Shown one piece after another: positions 21,364 through 28,259 of a stretch of 64,000 nucleotides of DNA. The DNA comes from an uncultured Verrucomicrobiae bacterium. GTDB taxonomy: Bacteria > Verrucomicrobiota > Verrucomicrobiia > Limisphaerales > Palsa-1400. Location: NCBI GenBank assembly GCA_963702845.1, contig OY969763.1:5472001-5536000 (forward strand). Direction: 5' to 3'. The position numbers and the translations under genes were made by a program. A model generated the notes under the pieces. It searched no databases and was not told the origin of the DNA. It saw only the letters and a program-made list of their open reading frames with translations. Each line of letters begins with the position of its first letter. Within the stretch, counting starts at the first letter, position 1.

Positions 21364-21530
21364 TTAGTCACGTCGCTTTGCTGGAACAACACACCAGCCG
21401 AGACAAGCGAAGTAAATCAACACCGAAACAAGAGAGACCCACTTCCCGACCGTAAAAGCAGGCGGACGATACTCCATTTTCAAGAGATGATGGCCAGCGG
21501 CCAACGGCACTGCGCGCAAACAAAGTAATC
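21364..21530 (-). pseudogene. Remnant 3' end of a YfhO-like membrane protein
   Basis: RAVPLAAGHH...YRP..F.VGKWVS plus TM resembles a YfhO C-terminus; no upstream portion present. Confidence 0.5.
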
Positions 21531-21896
21531 CTCGAATCACCGCCCCAACCCGCGCCTGATTCACGGTGGAGATGATAAGAGTTATGTTAAATGACGGAAT
21601 TCAAAAAAGAGTTTTTAAATGGATTAGCGCGCCTTCAGACAGCCTGGAACATTGATGTCAATTAGTCCACGACAGAGCCGGGTGCGGTAACACTGAATTA
21701 AAAAACGATTTCCCTTGGATTACCGGCACTTCAGACAATGAGCGCCCCGTTGTGTCAAGTATTACACGACAGAGCTTTTACGGTTTTCCCTGAAAACAGA
21801 ACCGGCGGAACCCCGATTGTTGTTTTTGTCAAATAGTTCACTGTGGCGTTGTCCCATGAAAACCCACGACGAGTGGCCAAGAACCTTTGTGCCGCC

Positions 21897-21959
21897 ACGA
21901 TGTCTTGTACCGTTTGCAGGCCGGTGCTCGAGATCGTCTCCATAACAAAAGCAGCCTGC
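21897..21959 (+). ncRNA. Candidate leader pseudoknot, GH25 copy 1
   Basis: Hairpin with loop GCAGGC (21916-21921) complementary to GCCTGC (21954-21959). Confidence 0.55.
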
Positions 21960-21985
21960 CGACAAAAAGCAAAAAACAAAAAGCA

Positions 21986-22745
21986 ATGAAAACGATCATT
22001 AAAACCTCGTTAGGGTTGGTTGCGGGATTGGCGCTGTCGTTTACCGGCATGCAAGCCAAAGCTAACAACACGACCCACAGTCTCCTCGGCATTGATGTCT
22101 CCAGCTATCAAGGTTTCGTCACATGGGCAGCGTCCATGGTGACGGCGTAGCGTTCGCATTCGCCCGCGCCACTGAAGGAACCGCCAGCAACGACTCGGAT
22201 TTCTCCGGCAACATGAGCCGCGGCAAAAGCGCTGGTGTGAAATGGGCGCTTATCACTTCGCCTATCCAGCCGAAGGGTGCCCCAGCGTGCAGGCCAATCA
22301 CTTCTGGTCTATCGCCGGCGGCAAAATCACCGCTGACGGCAAATCAGTCATGCCGATGGTGGATTGCGAAGAATTCACTGGTGTTGGCTGCTCCGAAGGC
22401 ACCTACACCACCTGGTACAATGATTGGGCGACAGACCTCAAGACTCATTCTTCTGGCCTGCGTCCTGTCATCTATGTCAGCGCCTGCAATGCGTCTCACT
22501 TGACCACCGGCATCGCGGACTTGGGTGCATGGATTGCCGACTACAATGGCGGCAACCTGTATACCGGCAACCCATGGACCACCTGCTGTGGTGACTGCCG
22601 CTGGGGTTCCACCTCCTGCAACAACAACACCTGGACCTACTGGCAGGTCAGCTCCACTGGAGCGATCAGCGGTATCTCCGGCAACGTCGACCTCGATGCC
22701 TACAATGGCACCTTGGCCCAGTTGACCTCCTGGCAAGGTGTCTAA
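21986..22745 (+). CDS. Secreted GH25 muramidase copy 1 (two 1-nt deletions near 22127 and 22241)
   Basis: Signal peptide, GIDVSSYQG, DCE acid motif, NVDLD; mature region nearly identical to copy 2. Confidence 0.85.
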
Positions 22746-22760
22746 TCTAGTTTGAAGCAA

Positions 22761-22790
22761 GCCCGCGCGAGGCCAAAACCTCGCGCGGGT
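22761..22790 (+). terminator. Terminator hairpin after GH25 copy 1
   Basis: CCCGCGCGAGG...CCTCGCGCGGG. Confidence 0.7.
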
Positions 22791-22932
22791 CTCACATTGT
22801 CGAACCCATAAGTCGTCACAATCAACAAAAAGCAAAAAGCGCCTGAACCCAACAGGCATTTAAGCTGTTCGTTTGAAATTTTTTCAGTAGCGAAACTAAG
22901 TGCGTTAGTGATCTCTGAGTTTGAGTCCAGAG

Positions 22933-22999
22933 CGCGTGCTTTGGCGGCCTTGCAGGAGGACGCTTAAGTCCGTGAACCAAACTAAAAAACAACCTGCAA
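22933..22999 (+). ncRNA. Candidate leader pseudoknot, GH25 copy 2
   Basis: TTGCAGG (22950-22956) complementary to CCTGCAA (22993-22999). Confidence 0.55.
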
Positions 23000-23020
23000 T
23001 GACGGAAAGATAACAATAAA

Positions 23021-23785
23021 ATGAAACGCAGTACTCTAGTTACATACGCACTTGGCATTGTTGCCTCCGCAGCCCTTCTCGGTGCTACGGAAGTTCGCGC
23101 TAACAACACGACCCACAGCCTTCTCGGCATCGACGTCTCCAGCTATCAAGGTTTCATCACCTGGAGCAGCGTCAAAGGTGACGGCGTTGAGTTCGCATTC
23201 GCCCGCGCCACTGAAGGAACCGCCAGCAACGACTCGGATTTCTCCGGAAACATGACCCGCGGCAAAAGCGCTGGTGTGAAGATGGGCGCTTATCACTTCG
23301 CCTATCCAGCCGAAGGGTGCCCCAGCGTGCAGGCCAATCACTTCTGGTCTATCGCCGGCGGCAAAATCACCGCTGACGGCAAATCAGTCATGCCGATGGT
23401 GGATTGCGAAGAATTCACTGGTGTTGGCTGCTCCGAAGGCACCTACACCACCTGGTACAATGATTGGGCAACAGACCTCAAGACTCATTCTTCTGGCCTG
23501 CGTCCTGTCATCTATGTCAGCGCCTGCAATGCGTCTCACTTGACCACCGGCATCGCGGACTTGGGTGCATGGATTGCCGACTACAATGGCGGCAACCTGT
23601 ATACCGGCAACCCATGGACCACCTGCTGTGGTGACTGCCGCTGGGGTTCCACCTCCTGCAACAACAACACCTGGACCTACTGGCAGGTCAGCTCCACTGG
23701 AGCGATCAGCGGTATCTCCGGCAACGTCGACCTCGATGCCTACAATGGCACCTTGGCTGACTTGACGTCCTGGCAGGGTGTGTAA
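23021..23785 (+). CDS. Secreted GH25 muramidase copy 2
   Basis: GIDVS, ARATEG, GAYHF, MVDCEE, YWQ.SS.G...GISGNVDLD. Confidence 0.9.
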   Translation: MKRSTLVTYALGIVASAALLGATEVRANNTTHSLLGIDVSSYQGFITWSSVKGDGVEFAFARATEGTASNDSDFSGNMTRGKSAGVKMGAYHFAYPAEGCPSVQANHFWSIAGGKITADGKSVMPMVDCEEFTGVGCSEGTYTTWYNDWATDLKTHSSGLRPVIYVSACNASHLTTGIADLGAWIADYNGGNLYTGNPWTTCCGDCRWGSTSCNNNTWTYWQVSSTGAISGISGNVDLDAYNGTLADLTSWQGV

Positions 23786-23810
23786 TCCTGACCTGACTGT
23801 TTGTTAATTC

Positions 23811-23843
23811 AACCCGCGCGGATGAAAGTCCGCGCGGGTTTTT
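23811..23843 (+). terminator. Terminator after GH25 copy 2
   Basis: AACCCGCGCGGA...TCCGCGCGGGTTTTT. Confidence 0.8.
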
Positions 23844-24164
23844 ACATTCCTATCAGATTTTCGTCGACAGCCCATGTCAACAGAACCGCTACAAATCACG
23901 TTCTTTCTCACGCTCAATGAGCGTGATGTTCTTTCTCGAAAGCAGTATCAGGTTTCACCGCGAATTATTGTCAATTTAAGTTCGACACACCAATTACGCT
24001 TTTTGCTGAGTAGCGAATCCGCATAGACCTGATTGTTCCTCGGAACGGAAAAGTCCATTGTCTTGCCCGTTACCCGAGCGATAAAAAAGCACTGAACCCA
24101 CCAGCGCTCCTCCAGCGGTCCATTCGCGTGGATCTCAGTCTGATTTGAATTTGAGTCCAGAGTG

Positions 24165-24224
24165 CGTGTTCTGTACGGCGCGCAGGAAGACGTTACAGAA
24201 CACGATAAAACAAAAAAATCCTGC
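24165..24224 (+). ncRNA. Candidate leader pseudoknot, GH25 copy 3
   Basis: 11-bp stem CGTGTTCTGTA/TACAGAACACG; GCAGGA (24182-24187) complementary to TCCTGC (24219-24224). Confidence 0.6.
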
Positions 24225-24242
24225 AATGACGGAAACCACTAA

Positions 24243-25004
24243 ATGAAACGTAATCTAATACAAAAGATCCTCGGCATCTGTGCGGCTGCAACACTGCTCG
24301 GAACCACCGGCGCTCGCGCCAATAACACCACCCACAGCCTCCTCGGCGTGGACGTTTCGAGCTATCAAGGCTCAATCAACTGGAGCAGTGTTTACGGTGA
24401 CGGCGTCCGCTTCGCGTCTGCCAAAGCCACCGAGAGCACCGGTTACACCGATGCCTATTTCGCTGGCAACATGAACAACGGCAAAGCCGCAGGCTTGCAG
24501 ATGTGTGCATACCACTTCGCCCATCCTGAATCCACCTGTCCAAGTGCACAAGTGAACCACTTCTGGTCTGTCGCCGGCAGCAAGATCACCGCAGACGGCA
24601 AATCGGTTTATCCGATGGTCGACTGCGAAGTCTTCAGCGGCGTCACCTGCAGTGAAGGCACCTACACCACGTGGTACAACGACTACTCCACTGACCTGAA
24701 GGCCAAGACGGCCAACTTCCTGCACCCGGTCATCTACGTCAGCGCCTGCGCTGCCAGCCACCTGAGCACCGCGATCACGCTCTCGGCCTGGATCGCCGAC
24801 TACAACGGCGAGAACCTCTACACCGGTAATCCTTGGACCACCTGCTGCGGCGACGACCGTTGGGGTTCCACCTCCTGCAACGCCAACACCTGGACCTACT
24901 GGCAAGTCAGCAGCACCGGCGCTATCAGCGGCATCTCCGGCAACGTTGACCTCGATGCCTACAACGGCACCTTGGCTGACTTGATCTCGTGGCAAGGAGT
25001 GTAA
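24243..25004 (+). CDS. Secreted GH25 muramidase copy 3
   Basis: Same GH25 motifs (GVDVS, KATE, AYHF, DCE, VDLD). Confidence 0.9.
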   Translation: MKRNLIQKILGICAAATLLGTTGARANNTTHSLLGVDVSSYQGSINWSSVYGDGVRFASAKATESTGYTDAYFAGNMNNGKAAGLQMCAYHFAHPESTCPSAQVNHFWSVAGSKITADGKSVYPMVDCEVFSGVTCSEGTYTTWYNDYSTDLKAKTANFLHPVIYVSACAASHLSTAITLSAWIADYNGENLYTGNPWTTCCGDDRWGSTSCNANTWTYWQVSSTGAISGISGNVDLDAYNGTLADLISWQGV

Positions 25005-25028
25005 TCTGATCTGAGTTTGTTATACTGC

Positions 25029-25059
25029 ACCCGCGCGGACGCAAGTTCGCGCGGGTTTT
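25029..25059 (+). terminator. Terminator after GH25 copy 3
   Basis: ACCCGCGCGGAC-GCAA-GTTCGCGCGGGTTTT. Confidence 0.8.
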
Positions 25060-25225
25060 CTCTTTTCGGAAGGCCGGCTGAACACCATGTCAAATTTAAC
25101 ACGACACAGCACCTCAGCCTTTTGCTCACCGCCGAACCGGCTGATGCCTGATTGTTTGATTGTACCACAAAGTCCAAAGTGGGCTGTTCCCAAAACCTAA
25201 CGCCGGCAAACGATTGTCGTTCGCC

Positions 25226-25282
25226 CGAAGTTTGTCTCTGGTTGCAGACTGGACAAAGTTCGCCTACTAAAAGCACCTGCAA
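25226..25282 (+). ncRNA. Candidate leader pseudoknot, GH25 copy 4
   Basis: Stem CGAAGTTTGTC/GACAAAGTTCG; TTGCAG (25242-25247) complementary to CTGCAA (25277-25282). Confidence 0.6.
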
Positions 25283-25302
25283 AAAAGCAAAAAACAAAAA
25301 GC

Positions 25303-26052
25303 ATGAAAACCACTAAATTACTCCTTGCTGCGCTCGCGTTGTCCCTCGGGGCTACTCTGGCGCAAGCTAACAATACGACTCACAGTCTCCTCGGAATCGA
25401 CGTGTCGCACTATCAAGGCGGCATCACCTGGAGCAGTGTTTACGGCGACGGCGTCCGTTATACCTTTGCCAAAGCTGTCGAAGGCACCGGTTATACCGAC
25501 CCTAACTTCAGCTCTTACGCCAGCGGTGCTAAAGCAGCTGGTTTGAAGTTTGGCGCCTATGACTTCTGCCATCCAGAATCCGGCTGCCCAAGTGCCGAAG
25601 TCAACCACTTCTGGTCGGTTGCTGGTGGCAAGATCACCGCTGACGGCAAGTCCCTCTATCCGATGCTCGACTTGGAAGTGTTCTCCGGTGTTGCTTGCGG
25701 TGAAGGCACCTACACCGGATGGTCCAACGACTGGTCAACCGATGTCAAAGCGAAGACCGGCAACTTCCTGCATCCGGTTATCTATATCAGCGCATGCAAT
25801 TGCTCCCACCTGAGCACTGCTATCACGCTGTCTGCCTGGATTGCGGACTACAACGGCCAGAACCTCTACACCGGTAACCCGTGGAGCACCTGCTGCAGCT
25901 ACGACCGTTGGGGCTCCACCGCCTGCAATGCCAACACATGGACCTACTGGCAGGTCAGCTCGACCGGTCGCATCAGCGGCATCTCCGGCAACGTTGACCT
26001 CGATGCCTACAACGGCACCTTGGCTGAATTAACGTCCTGGCAAGGTGTTTAG
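25303..26052 (+). CDS. Secreted GH25 muramidase copy 4
   Basis: GIDVSHYQG, KAVEG, MLDLE, VDLD. Confidence 0.9.
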   Translation: MKTTKLLLAALALSLGATLAQANNTTHSLLGIDVSHYQGGITWSSVYGDGVRYTFAKAVEGTGYTDPNFSSYASGAKAAGLKFGAYDFCHPESGCPSAEVNHFWSVAGGKITADGKSLYPMLDLEVFSGVACGEGTYTGWSNDWSTDVKAKTGNFLHPVIYISACNCSHLSTAITLSAWIADYNGQNLYTGNPWSTCCSYDRWGSTACNANTWTYWQVSSTGRISGISGNVDLDAYNGTLAELTSWQGV

Positions 26053-26082
26053 TCTGGCAACCTGAAGCTGTTCCTATACTGC

Positions 26083-26115
26083 AACCCGCGCGGGTGAAAA
26101 CTCGCGCGGGTTTTT
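26083..26115 (+). terminator. Terminator after GH25 copy 4
   Basis: AACCCGCGCGGGT...ACTCGCGCGGGTTTTT. Confidence 0.8.
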
Positions 26116-26281
26116 ACGTATTCAAAACGTGCTTATCGCACTGTCGATAACAACGTGACAGGGCAGTTCAGCTTATTACTGACTGCTGAATCGACTGACG
26201 CCTGATTGTATATTTTACAGCAAGGCTCAGAGTCGCACTGTTCCAAAAAAAACCAACGTCGGCAAACTATTGTCGTTTGCC

Positions 26282-26340
26282 CGAAGTTTGTCTCTGGTTG
26301 CAGACTGGACAAATTTCGCCTCACTAAAAAGTAACTGCAA
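26282..26340 (+). ncRNA. Candidate leader pseudoknot, GH25 copy 5
   Basis: Stem CGAAGTTTGTC/GACAAATTTCG; TTGCAG (26298-26303) complementary to CTGCAA (26335-26340). Confidence 0.6.
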
Positions 26341-26358
26341 TTAAGCAAAAAACAGAAA

Positions 26359-27123
26359 ATGAAACGCACTACTCTAGTCCAAAATGCCCTTGGCATCGTC
26401 GTCGTCGCCGCCCTCACCTTGGGCGCGACCTCCCTCCGAGCTAACAATACCACGCACAGCCTCTTGGGCGTGGACGTCTCAAGCTATCAAGGCTCCATCA
26501 CCTGGAGCAGCGTCTACGGTGATGGCGTCCGTTTCGCGTCTGCCAAAGCCACCGAAAGCACCGGTTATACCGATGCTTATTTCTCCGGCAACATGAACAA
26601 CGGCAAAGCCGCCGGTTTGCAAATGTGCGCGTATCACTTCGCCCATCCCGAATCCACCTGCCCAAGCGCGCAAGTGAATCACTTCTGGGCAGTCGCCGGT
26701 AGTAAAATCACTGCGGACGGCAAGTCGATCTACCCGATGGTTGATTGCGAAGTCTTCAGCGGCGTGACCTGCGGTGAAGGCACATACAATACCTGGTACA
26801 ATGACTATGCTGCCGATCTCAAAGGCAAAACCTCATTGTTCCTGCACCCAGTCCTCTACACCAGCGCGTGCAGTGCCTGCCATCTGAGCAGCGCCACCAC
26901 GCTCTCGGCTTGGATCGCGGACTACAACGGCCAGAACCTCTACACTGGTAACCCTTGGACGACGTGCTGCTCCTGTAACGTCTGGGGCGGCGGTTGCAAT
27001 GCCAACACCTGGACCTACTGGCAGGTTAGCAGCACCGGTGCCATCAGCGGCATCTCCGGTAACGTCGACCTCGATGCCTATAACGGCACCTTGGCTGAAT
27101 TGGTGTCCTGGCAGGGTGTCTAA
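26359..27123 (+). CDS. Secreted GH25 muramidase copy 5
   Basis: Same GH25 motifs. Confidence 0.9.
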   Translation: MKRTTLVQNALGIVVVAALTLGATSLRANNTTHSLLGVDVSSYQGSITWSSVYGDGVRFASAKATESTGYTDAYFSGNMNNGKAAGLQMCAYHFAHPESTCPSAQVNHFWAVAGSKITADGKSIYPMVDCEVFSGVTCGEGTYNTWYNDYAADLKGKTSLFLHPVLYTSACSACHLSSATTLSAWIADYNGQNLYTGNPWTTCCSCNVWGGGCNANTWTYWQVSSTGAISGISGNVDLDAYNGTLAELVSWQGV

Positions 27124-27153
27124 TCCTTCCCTGACTACATTTCAAAACTGCAC

Positions 27154-27183
27154 CCCGCGCGAAGCAACACTCGCGCGGGTTTT
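27154..27183 (+). terminator. Terminator after GH25 copy 5
   Basis: CCCGCGCGA...TCGCGCGGGTTTT. Confidence 0.75.
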
Positions 27184-27313
27184 CATTTTTGCACTGTCAA
27201 GCGAACCATTACTTGTATGTCAATAATACATCTACACGCCAAATCGGGGTTTGCCTGATTGTGGTTTTGTGGGAAATGTAGAAACTCACCTCGTTCCCAA
27301 CACGAGTCCAGAG

Positions 27314-27380
27314 CGCGTGTTTCATTTTGCTTGCAGGAGCGATTTGAAAATCCGTGAAGTAAATCAGTAAATCTCCTGCA
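27314..27380 (+). ncRNA. Candidate leader pseudoknot, GH25 copy 6
   Basis: TGCAGGAG (27332-27339) complementary to CTCCTGCA (27373-27380). Confidence 0.55.
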
Positions 27381-27398
27381 TTGACCGAAAGTAGTATA

Positions 27399-28166
27399 AT
27401 GAAACGCAGTAATCTGATCAAAAACGTACTTGGACTAGTAGCTGGCGTCGCCCTCCTGGGGGCTTCGGAAGCACGCGCAAACAATACCACCCACAGCCTT
27501 CTCGGCATTGACGTCTCCAGTTTTCAAGGTTTCGTCACCTGGAGCAGCGTCAATGGTGATGGCGTTGCCTTCGCGTTCGCTCGCGCTACTGAAGGAACCG
27601 CGAGCAATGATTCCGATTTCTCCGGAAACATGACCCGAGGTAAAAGCGCAGGCGTGAAAATGGGCGCTTATCACTTCGCCTATCCAGCCGAAGGCTGCCC
27701 CTCAGTCCAAGCCAGTCACTTCTGGACTCAAGCCGGTAGCAAAATCACGGCTGATGGCAAGTCGCTCATGCCGATGGTTGACTGTGAAGAGTTCACTGGT
27801 ATCGGCTGCTCTGAAGGCACCTACACCACCTGGTACAATGATTGGGCCGCAGACCTCAAGACCCACACGACCTTGACCCTGCGTCCAGTTATTTATGTCA
27901 GCGCCTGCAATGCCTCGTTTTTGACTACCGGCATCTCGGGTTTGGGCGCTTGGATCGCCGATTACAATGGCCAAAACCTCTACACCGGCAACCCATGGAG
28001 CACCTGCTGCGGCGACGACCGTTGGGGTTCCACCTCCTGCAATGCCAACACCTGGACCTACTGGCAGGTTAGCAGCACGGGTGCCATCAGCGGCATCTCC
28101 GGTAACGTCGATCTCGATGCCTATAACGGCACCTTGGCTGATTTGACCTCCTGGCAAGGTGTGTAA
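27399..28166 (+). CDS. Secreted GH25 muramidase copy 6
   Basis: MKRS signal peptide as in copy 2; same GH25 motifs. Confidence 0.9.
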   Translation: MKRSNLIKNVLGLVAGVALLGASEARANNTTHSLLGIDVSSFQGFVTWSSVNGDGVAFAFARATEGTASNDSDFSGNMTRGKSAGVKMGAYHFAYPAEGCPSVQASHFWTQAGSKITADGKSLMPMVDCEEFTGIGCSEGTYTTWYNDWAADLKTHTTLTLRPVIYVSACNASFLTTGISGLGAWIADYNGQNLYTGNPWSTCCGDDRWGSTSCNANTWTYWQVSSTGAISGISGNVDLDAYNGTLADLTSWQGV

Positions 28167-28223: not shown

Positions 28224-28259
28224 AACCCGCGCGAGTTTTAAAATTCGCGCGGGTTTTTT
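28224..28259 (+). terminator. Terminator after GH25 copy 6
   Basis: AACCCGCGCGAGTTTTAAAATTCGCGCGGGTTTTTT. Confidence 0.85.

Follow-up and report, generated by a model that had tools for sequence, protein, structure and literature searches.

A predicted pseudoknot in the leaders of tandem GH25 muramidase genes in a verrucomicrobial genome

Six tandem genes for small secreted GH25 muramidases lie on the same strand between 21.9 and 28.2 kilobases (kb) of a 64,000 nucleotide (nt) stretch of contig OY969763.1 (positions 5472001–5536000), from an uncultured Verrucomicrobiae bacterium (assembly GCA_963702845.1); that whole stretch is here termed the window. Five of the copies are intact, encode proteins of 249–255 amino acids (aa) and match PF01183 with E values of 1e-28 to 1e-32. 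Before all six ATGs is a hairpin, P1, whose apical loop holds a GCAG-type 5′ box, and 9–16 nt 3′ of P1 is a CUGC-type 3′ box complementary to the one in the loop (the pairing between the two boxes is termed P2). P1 has 12–17 predicted pairs in folds constrained to leave the box unpaired, and an A-rich spacer of 16–26 nt, devoid of a Shine Dalgarno (SD) sequence, separates the 3′ box from the ATG. A preliminary description of the locus, made from its letters alone, had drawn attention to the two boxes, and all six of the box pairs that it quoted are present. Since the 5′ box is inside the P1 loop and the 3′ box is outside it, P1 and P2 cross, so that the predicted architecture is an H-type pseudoknot with a long stem 1. 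The features, in window coordinates and with copies 1 to 6 also designated c1 to c6, are as follows.

21897..21937, + strand: copy 1 P1, arms 21897-21912 and 21922-21937, 13 enclosing pairs, -16.8 kcal/mol, z -3.0
21916..21921, + strand: copy 1 5′ box GCAGGC (P2a), in the P1 loop
21954..21959, + strand: copy 1 3′ box GCCTGC (P2b), preceded by a 16-nt linker, 21938-21953
21960..21985, + strand: copy 1 A-rich spacer, up to the ATG at 21986
21986..22745, + strand: copy 1 GH25 pseudogene; compared with copy 2, it carries two deletions of 1 nt each and a TAG in frame
22933..22974, + strand: copy 2 P1 core, 17 pairs, -16.8 kcal/mol, z -1.9; three more outer pairs are predicted, 22924-22926 with 22981-22983
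22950..22956, + strand: copy 2 5′ box TTGCAGG (P2a)
22993..22999, + strand: copy 2 3′ box CCTGCAA (P2b)
23000..23020, + strand: copy 2 spacer, containing TGACGGAAAG, up to the ATG at 23021
23021..23785, + strand: copy 2 GH25 gene, 254 aa, PF01183 E 1.2e-32
24165..24204, + strand: copy 3 P1, 11 contiguous pairs and an inner helix, 15 pairs, -18.2 kcal/mol, z -4.2 (none of 200 shuffles reached it)
24182..24187, + strand: copy 3 5′ box GCAGGA (P2a)
24219..24224, + strand: copy 3 3′ box TCCTGC (P2b), preceded by the linker ATAAAACAAAAAAA, 24205-24218
24225..24242, + strand: copy 3 spacer, up to the ATG at 24243
24243..25004, + strand: copy 3 GH25 gene, 253 aa, PF01183 E 4.2e-28
25226..25262, + strand: copy 4 P1, 12 pairs, -12.5 kcal/mol, z -1.25
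25242..25247, + strand: copy 4 5′ box TTGCAG (P2a)
25277..25282, + strand: copy 4 3′ box CTGCAA (P2b), preceded by the linker 25263-25276
25283..25302, + strand: copy 4 A-rich spacer, up to the ATG at 25303
25303..26052, + strand: copy 4 GH25 gene, 249 aa, PF01183 E 5.2e-28
26282..26318, + strand: copy 5 P1, 12 contiguous pairs, -12.2 kcal/mol, z -2.5
26296..26303, + strand: copy 5 5′ box GGTTGCAG, i.e. (GG)TTGCAG (P2a), the two outer pairs being G.U
26335..26342, + strand: copy 5 3′ box CTGCAATT, i.e. CTGCAA(TT) (P2b), preceded by the linker 26319-26334
26343..26358, + strand: copy 5 A-rich spacer, up to the ATG at 26359
26359..27123, + strand: copy 5 GH25 gene, 254 aa, PF01183 E 3.5e-28
27314..27356, + strand: copy 6 P1, weak and interrupted, 12 pairs, -7.3 kcal/mol, z -0.08, 21 foreign partners equal or better
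27332..27339, + strand: copy 6 5′ box TGCAGGAG (P2a)
27373..27380, + strand: copy 6 3′ box CTCCTGCA (P2b), preceded by the linker 27357-27372
27381..27398, + strand: copy 6 spacer, containing TTGACCGAAAG, up to the ATG at 27399
27399..28166, + strand: copy 6 GH25 gene, 255 aa, PF01183 E 6.4e-30

The comparisons draw on 31 leaders from the same genome (G000), its congener G001 and metagenomes, with not all of the tests using all of them (28–32 rows). Across this set P1 has a median length of 14 base pairs (bp) and P2 of 7 bp (range 5–11). The median of loop 1 (L1) is 3 nt (0–19), of loop 2 (L2) 1 nt (0–26), of the linker (L3) 11.5 nt (0–27), and of the spacer to the ATG 20 nt (12–64 where a start codon is present). 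The linkers are 56% A, 24% C, 9% G and 10% U, and A makes up 57% and G 14% of the spacers in the 30 leaders that possess a start codon. The distance from box to box is anywhere from 24 to about 54 nt, and the extension of P2 moves from one flank of its core to the other between leaders. Of 30 leaders, 22 have a linker of 9–18 nt, sufficient to bridge an 11–15 bp stem. Linker lengths thus permit P1 and P2 to form simultaneously in most leaders, the exceptions being L007, L045 and L096 if their outer P1 pairs form.

Within any one sequence a P2 of 6–8 bp does not stand out from chance: the best helix close to the ATG was equalled or beaten in 59, 33 and 8 of 100 dinucleotide shuffles of c1, c2 and c6, respectively. 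Comparison between leaders argues strongly that it is a real helix. RNAalifold, given a MAFFT alignment made blind to structure and so not fitted to P2, selects exactly the box pairing. In a 32-row alignment that was fitted to P2, and hence favours it, 82.1% of the cells are paired and double-sided changes occur in eight of the nine pairs (19 cells); this set includes three doubtful members (L144 twice, and L081). None of 500 column shuffles reached any of the five measures used, and sliding the partner by 1–3 columns reduced pairing to 33–51%. One core pair is A-U 24 times, G-C three times (the change to G-C being in L053a and L068) and G.U three times (L061, L062 and L053b). Elsewhere in the core a G-C has become A-U in L038 and a C-G has become U-A in L053b. 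The five core pairs include G.U cells and no A.C cells, with a single non-standard cell overall. In three orthologues of the copy 1 leader the boxes are GCAGGC/GCCUGC, GCAGGC/GUCUGC and GCAGAC/GUCUGC. Without recourse to alignment, boxes pair better with their own partner than with foreign ones (score 18.9 versus 15.9; 7.3 versus 6.3 bp), a difference attained in none of 20000 permutations and unchanged with the 24 distinct box pairs, these counts overstating significance because related sequences are not independent. That bases flanking the GCAG/CTGC core vary together, as initially proposed, is borne out by these tests. An alternative in which the 3′ box pairs with a GCAG at codons 3–4 was dropped, as it involves only 4 bp and is absent in c3.

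P1 calls for a different treatment. It was out of register, as in part was the 3′ box, in MAFFT alignments of all leaders and of one group of eight, and for this reason P1 was tested without alignment and on a basal helix chosen after the fact. When folded with the box held unpaired, it has a mean z of -2.2 over 28 leaders, and in eight of them none of 200 shuffles was as stable; it is weak (z above -1) in seven, namely c6, L008, L018, L025, L053a, L144 and L062. The two arms form duplexes averaging -17.1 kcal/mol with their own partner versus -10.7 with foreign ones, a gap that none of 20000 permutations reached, and for 13 of 29 leaders every foreign partner is inferior. The arms have no sequence in common between classes and their complementarity is nevertheless kept, so the early assertion that pairing survives dissimilarity of the stems holds. 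The basal helix (columns 11–16 with 55–59 of the P2-fitted alignment, picked post hoc after a scan of the pairing matrix) is 77% paired with double changes in four of its five pairs. Covariation in homologues, proposed at the outset as a check, is present for both helices. In 24 of 29 leaders P1 is more stable as the sense strand, and in three as the antisense strand (p 3e-5), a signature of G.U pairs in the sense transcript. Its mean energy is -17.1 kcal/mol versus -13.4 for P2, and it is at least as stable as P2 in most leaders. That P1 is a real hairpin is supported by these comparisons. For six leaders of one group RNAalifold reported only an invariant CUCC:GGAG helix, which, as it lacks covariation, was set aside as evidence for structure and kept as a possible alternative pairing.

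The element has a narrow distribution. The genome, a single contig of 6.03 Mb, has 24 GH25 matches including multidomain proteins of 500–860 aa. The same arrangement precedes three of 14 further GH25 loci that were read (at 1208630, 5339113 and 491652 of G000), all of them small secreted forms, and is absent from multidomain GH25 genes of at least 500 aa; in all, nine small GH25 genes of G000, dispersed as well as tandem, carry the leader. Further copies are in G001, and others came from protein-alignment scans of metagenome and species-representative contigs (the best 80 of 442 metagenomic GH25 relatives were kept). Two rounds of covariance-model searching, also among the checks first suggested, added L042, L058, L061, L062, L096 and two orphan copies. 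The first model, R1, built from nine close leaders, was too narrow and recovered only c2, c3 and c6 in their own genome. The second, R2, gave nine matches there at E <= 10, and the six at E <= 0.0015 are all GH25 leaders; c4 and c5 scored E 4–7 and L018 was missed, and a match at 2260989 (E 2.5) was rejected as it is inside a coding region. In 100 GH25-centred sources there were 26 matches at E <= 0.0075. All confident matches are before small secreted GH25 genes or are the two orphan copies. At E <= 0.1 two of 31 genomes of the family have matches (G000 and G001). Matches were found in two of 151 sampled genomes of the order, the second being borderline and before an unrelated gene; that in G178 (E 0.036) was rejected because it precedes an unrelated gene. 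The genome bearing L156 has one leader copy. In viral contigs 20 pattern matches, all with at most 20 bits under R2, were put down to chance. Among the genomes searched the motif is rare and confined to this GH25 subfamily.

The orphans are leaders of the copy 1 type in two relatives (L180:895-981 on the minus strand and L050:41-124 on the plus strand). They have P1 and P2 intact and covarying but no GH25 open reading frame (ORF), there being a 9-codon frame in one and none in the other. The next GH25 leader follows each of them some 190–230 nt downstream, with no sign of a terminator in the interval, and the orphans could be tandem leaders or stand-alone RNA.

Other small GH25 genes have other leaders. 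A sister clade (L074, two each in L100, L133 and L137, L135 and L155) has a different conserved leader, in which an 11-bp hairpin of the CATCCTTGAAC..GTTCGAGGATG type is followed by a long-range pairing of CTAACCG(G/T) with (C/A)CGGTTAG, about 45–52 nt apart. The eighth pair of this helix is G-C or U-A, its end is about 20 nt before the ATG and, once in the shortened form AACCGG/CCGGTT, it is the best helix in nine of nine such leaders. A further small GH25 type with an ARPLGIDVS N-terminus (L017, about 2457330-2457460 of G000 contig C1, and L163) lacks the pseudoknot; upstream it has a perfect TTGCGCAAACGTTTGCG-type palindrome with the appearance of a protein operator.

Twelve terminator-like sites were found, six of them on the plus strand. 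Four of these, G+C-rich hairpins, are 3′ of GH25 genes, and the others are at 23908-23926 and 27242-27260. Because of the four, each GH25 copy is probably its own transcription unit with an upstream region of 270–460 nt. The GH25 terminators (23811-23840, 25029-25056, 27154-27179 and 28224-28255) have a common palindromic core, CCCGCGCG..CGCGCGGG, and would therefore have been duplicated along with the genes. Pseudogene copy 1 is 97% identical to copy 2 over 687 nt, with the final ~500 nt nearly identical, and such similarity despite the pseudogene lesions suggests recent gene conversion. A scan of the plus strand of the array for sigma-70-like promoters gave no match, and no regulator gene was found beside the array. 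The intergenic regions 5′ of the pseudoknot, e.g. 25075-25225, 26130-26280 and 27190-27310, also contain conserved boxes. TGTCAA-N9-ACGACA, with its inverted TGTC..GACA, is followed after ~45–50 nt by CCTGATTGT, then after ~31–33 nt by GTYCCCAA and, immediately 5′ of P1, by GAGTYCAGAG. The CCCAA box is often the loop of a 4–5 bp hairpin whose 3′ arm overlaps GAGTYCAGA. A pattern resembling extracytoplasmic function (ECF) promoters, GAAAC-N17-CTGAnT/GAGT, was seen by eye upstream of some leaders and set aside as not general. Three relatives (G001, G002 and G003) have 10–17 GH25 matches and most other genomes of the family 0–2, an expansion that suggests a bacteriolytic or necromass-degrading lifestyle.

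What could such a leader do? The whole is best explained as a structured leader RNA, acting in cis from the sense strand and serving only the small secreted GH25 subfamily, a view on which the balance of judgement is about even. Its function is more tentatively assigned, at somewhat less than an even chance, to an mRNA-protecting and start-site-opening 5′ untranslated region (UTR) module that is either constitutive or conditionally stabilised. The pseudoknot would tie up ~25 nt of a long single-stranded A/C-rich leader, making its 5′ part compact, and such a fold would shield the mRNA from RNase E-type decay, which acts on single strands and is 5′-end dependent. It would also keep the upstream leader from pairing with the A-rich ribosome landing site, which would remain open in an organism poor in SD sequences. 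The outcome would be high and coordinated output of the lysozyme set. The 16S rRNA ends in the normal anti-SD, CACCTCCTTT; even so, only 12.6% of 1888 long ORFs in G000 have an SD-core 4-mer before them (start calls being crude). The lack of a clear SD noted in the preliminary description is accordingly true of the leaders, but is the norm for the genome and not a special trait of theirs. With SD so rarely used, an open A-rich start region probably recruits ribosomes. RNase E/G is present in G000, and searches there for Hfq, CsrA and the C-terminal domain of RNase J gave no match at the thresholds used. Taken together with the lack of a terminator in the leaders, these features of the genome favour the folded 5′ UTR module. 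That the P2 core is conserved beside a drifting P1 suggests that the boxes are also read by something, be it tertiary contacts of the linker or a trans factor, and regulated folding is possible.

Several observations sit uneasily with a protective fold. The P2 core is conserved far past the needs of pairing (its G-C and its C-G are each present in 30 of 31), which is more in keeping with a site that is recognised than with a passive fold, and, as a plain hairpin suffices as a 5′ stabiliser, that role leaves P2 unexplained. The 12–64 nt range of the spacer to the ATG speaks against any exact steric function at the ribosome. Leaders of the c6, L025 and L051a type have a weak P1, and in L007 and L045 the predicted linker may shrink to 0–2 nt, which would make the two helices incompatible. 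In one leader group CUCC of the 5′ arm can pair alternatively with GGAG of the box, which hints at a switch. The two orphan copies retain the fold without any ORF, and P2 on its own has no strand preference (13 versus 16 of 29). An upstream ORF following AGGAG of the box was also entertained, since TTG-started frames are visible by eye in c6, L025 and L051a; it was dropped because the frames are not conserved, being absent from the other classes, and because the genome barely uses SD.

Some of these same points would be accommodated if the leader were an operator at which a protein or small RNA binds the GCAG(GAG) loop box, or the CUCCUGCAA box, to shift the balance between pseudoknot and open forms and so co-control translation or decay of the lysozyme mRNAs. 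The conserved P2 core beside a drifting P1, the display of the box in a hairpin loop, the regulon-like presence in nine dispersed and tandem genes of one genome, the orphans kept without an ORF and the alternative CUCC:GGAG pairing in one group are all as such an operator would have them. No candidate factor was found, however, CsrA and Hfq being absent at the thresholds used, nor was any complementary small RNA, though no search aimed at one was made, and there is no regulator gene beside the array; such an operator is considered unlikely. Control of the CsrA/RsmA kind in particular is at odds with the failure to find PF02599 in the 6.03-Mb genome, and the loop boxes of c1, c4, c5, L008, L018, L144 and L180c1 have no GGA. 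A riboswitch, in which the pseudoknot is an aptamer and P2 is stabilised by a small molecule such as a cell-wall breakdown product or second messenger, is distinctly unlikely. An H-type pseudoknot whose A/C-rich linker could line the groove of stem 1, covariation in both helices, strict gene association and the precedent of candidate cis-RNAs (the lysM and M23 motifs) before cell-wall hydrolase genes (PMC5737381) would all suit it. Known aptamers, though, keep conserved unpaired nucleotides, and here no such pocket is seen, with L1 at 0–19, L2 at 0–26 and L3 at 0–27 nt all variable in sequence. Nor is an expression platform visible. None of the 12 terminator-like sites is in a P1/P2 element, the leaders are free of U-tract terminators (the linkers being 10% U) and the 3′ box ends 12–64 nt before the ATG. 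Even at E <= 10 there was no match to an Rfam riboswitch family. In a bolder and similarly doubtful version, the element would form the aptamer-like core of a novel class of regulatory RNA that senses prey or cell-wall turnover (a peptidoglycan fragment or second messenger, directly or via a dedicated protein) and switches on the lysozyme regulon of bacteriolytic soil Verrucomicrobia, with the orphans as tandem or stand-alone sensors.

Whether there is a true pseudoknot at all depends on the coexistence of P1 and P2. P2 might instead be a nested long-range helix formed when P1 is open, or the two might be alternative states; unconstrained minimum-energy folds of c2 and c6 do show P2 nested around smaller hairpins, P1 is weak in the c6 type, and the linker is predicted to be 0–2 nt in L007, L045 and L096. 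This is very unlikely, as the 5′ box is in an unpaired P1 loop and the helices have no bases to compete for, P2 is no more stable than P1 in most leaders with both covarying, and the 22 of 30 linkers with 9–18 nt have sufficient span. Most improbable is that the inverted repeats act as DNA, as protein-binding or promoter palindromes, or merely reflect similarity between paralogues. The absence of a sigma-70-like promoter from the plus strand of the array means that unusual promoter elements must lie in the intergenic regions, several upstream boxes are conserved, and the energy of P2 lacks strand asymmetry. Yet the five core P2 pairs have G.U without A.C, P1 favours the sense strand (24 versus 3 of 29), spacing between boxes varies from 24 to about 54 nt, P1 arms stay complementary with no common sequence between classes, and the helix extension switches side of the core between leaders.

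Verrucomicrobia are abundant in soil and their gene regulation is almost unstudied. With apparently little SD pairing in this genome, and with no Hfq or CsrA found there, an RNA backed by covariation therefore offers an uncommon way into the study of post-transcriptional control in these bacteria. That it is tied to one enzyme family, the secreted GH25 muramidases, suggests that a bacteriolytic or necromass-feeding way of life is under coordinated control. Should the fold merely stabilise mRNA and keep the start open, it is a possible expression module for SD-less hosts; if it does sense a signal, it would be a new class of regulatory RNA for cell-wall degradation.

H-type pseudoknots are the architecture of the preQ1-I/II/III, SAM-II, SAM-V, guanidine-III and fluoride aptamers. 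The leaders resemble these in their 5′ position and in having a loop that pairs with a downstream strand across an A-rich linker. They differ in having a long, variable stem 1 with a median of 14 bp, and in that the loops are not conserved, the 3′ strand does not cover the ribosome-binding site, and there is neither an Rfam match nor a known ligand. The early comparison with preQ1 and SAM-II thus stands for architecture, but extends to no match with their Rfam models. The geometry is similar to that of the coronavirus IBV frameshift pseudoknot, in which stem 1 has at least about 11 bp, stem 2 has 6–7 bp, loop 1 is short and the linker has 8 nt or more. The IBV type, however, is in coding sequence after a slippery site and stalls ribosomes, whereas the present element is in a bacterial 5′ leader without slippery site or upstream ORF. 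The leader pseudoknots of E. coli rpsO/S15 and phage T4 gene 32 are translational operators, and the ompA 5′ UTR hairpin is a stabiliser, a type defined by its place within a few nt of the 5′ end of the transcript. Like these, the GH25 leader is a structure upstream of an unstructured A/U-rich initiation region that could set translation or mRNA life-time. In those operators the encoded RNA-binding protein is itself the regulator, while the GH25 product is a secreted lysozyme.

No family had been recognised in the preliminary description, and with Rfam 15 at gathering thresholds there is indeed no match in the 64-kb window or in 20 homologous loci. At E <= 10 there are five weak matches over 21500-27500, none in a leader and none near its gathering score. 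A literature search, at the level of search results, turned up no RNA element before verrucomicrobial GH25 genes. The leader motif, a pseudoknotted cis-RNA with a well supported structure, is real, seems to be uncatalogued and has a narrow distribution. Closest in function are RNAs described before genes for cell-wall-degrading enzymes, namely the lysM-Actino, lysM-Prevotella, lysM-TM7 and M23 motifs and the c-di-AMP (ydaO) riboswitches (Weinberg et al. 2017, PMC5737381). Neither Verrucomicrobia nor lysozyme occurs as a word in its main text. The RNAs of that paper are from other phyla and precede other gene families (LysM, M23 peptidase), and the present leaders do not match their Rfam models in sequence or structure. 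They are, nevertheless, candidate or proven cis-regulatory RNAs of 5′ UTRs, found by covariation, whose genes specify enzymes that degrade cell walls (PMC5737381), and by analogy appear to be the nearest functional counterparts of the GH25 leader.

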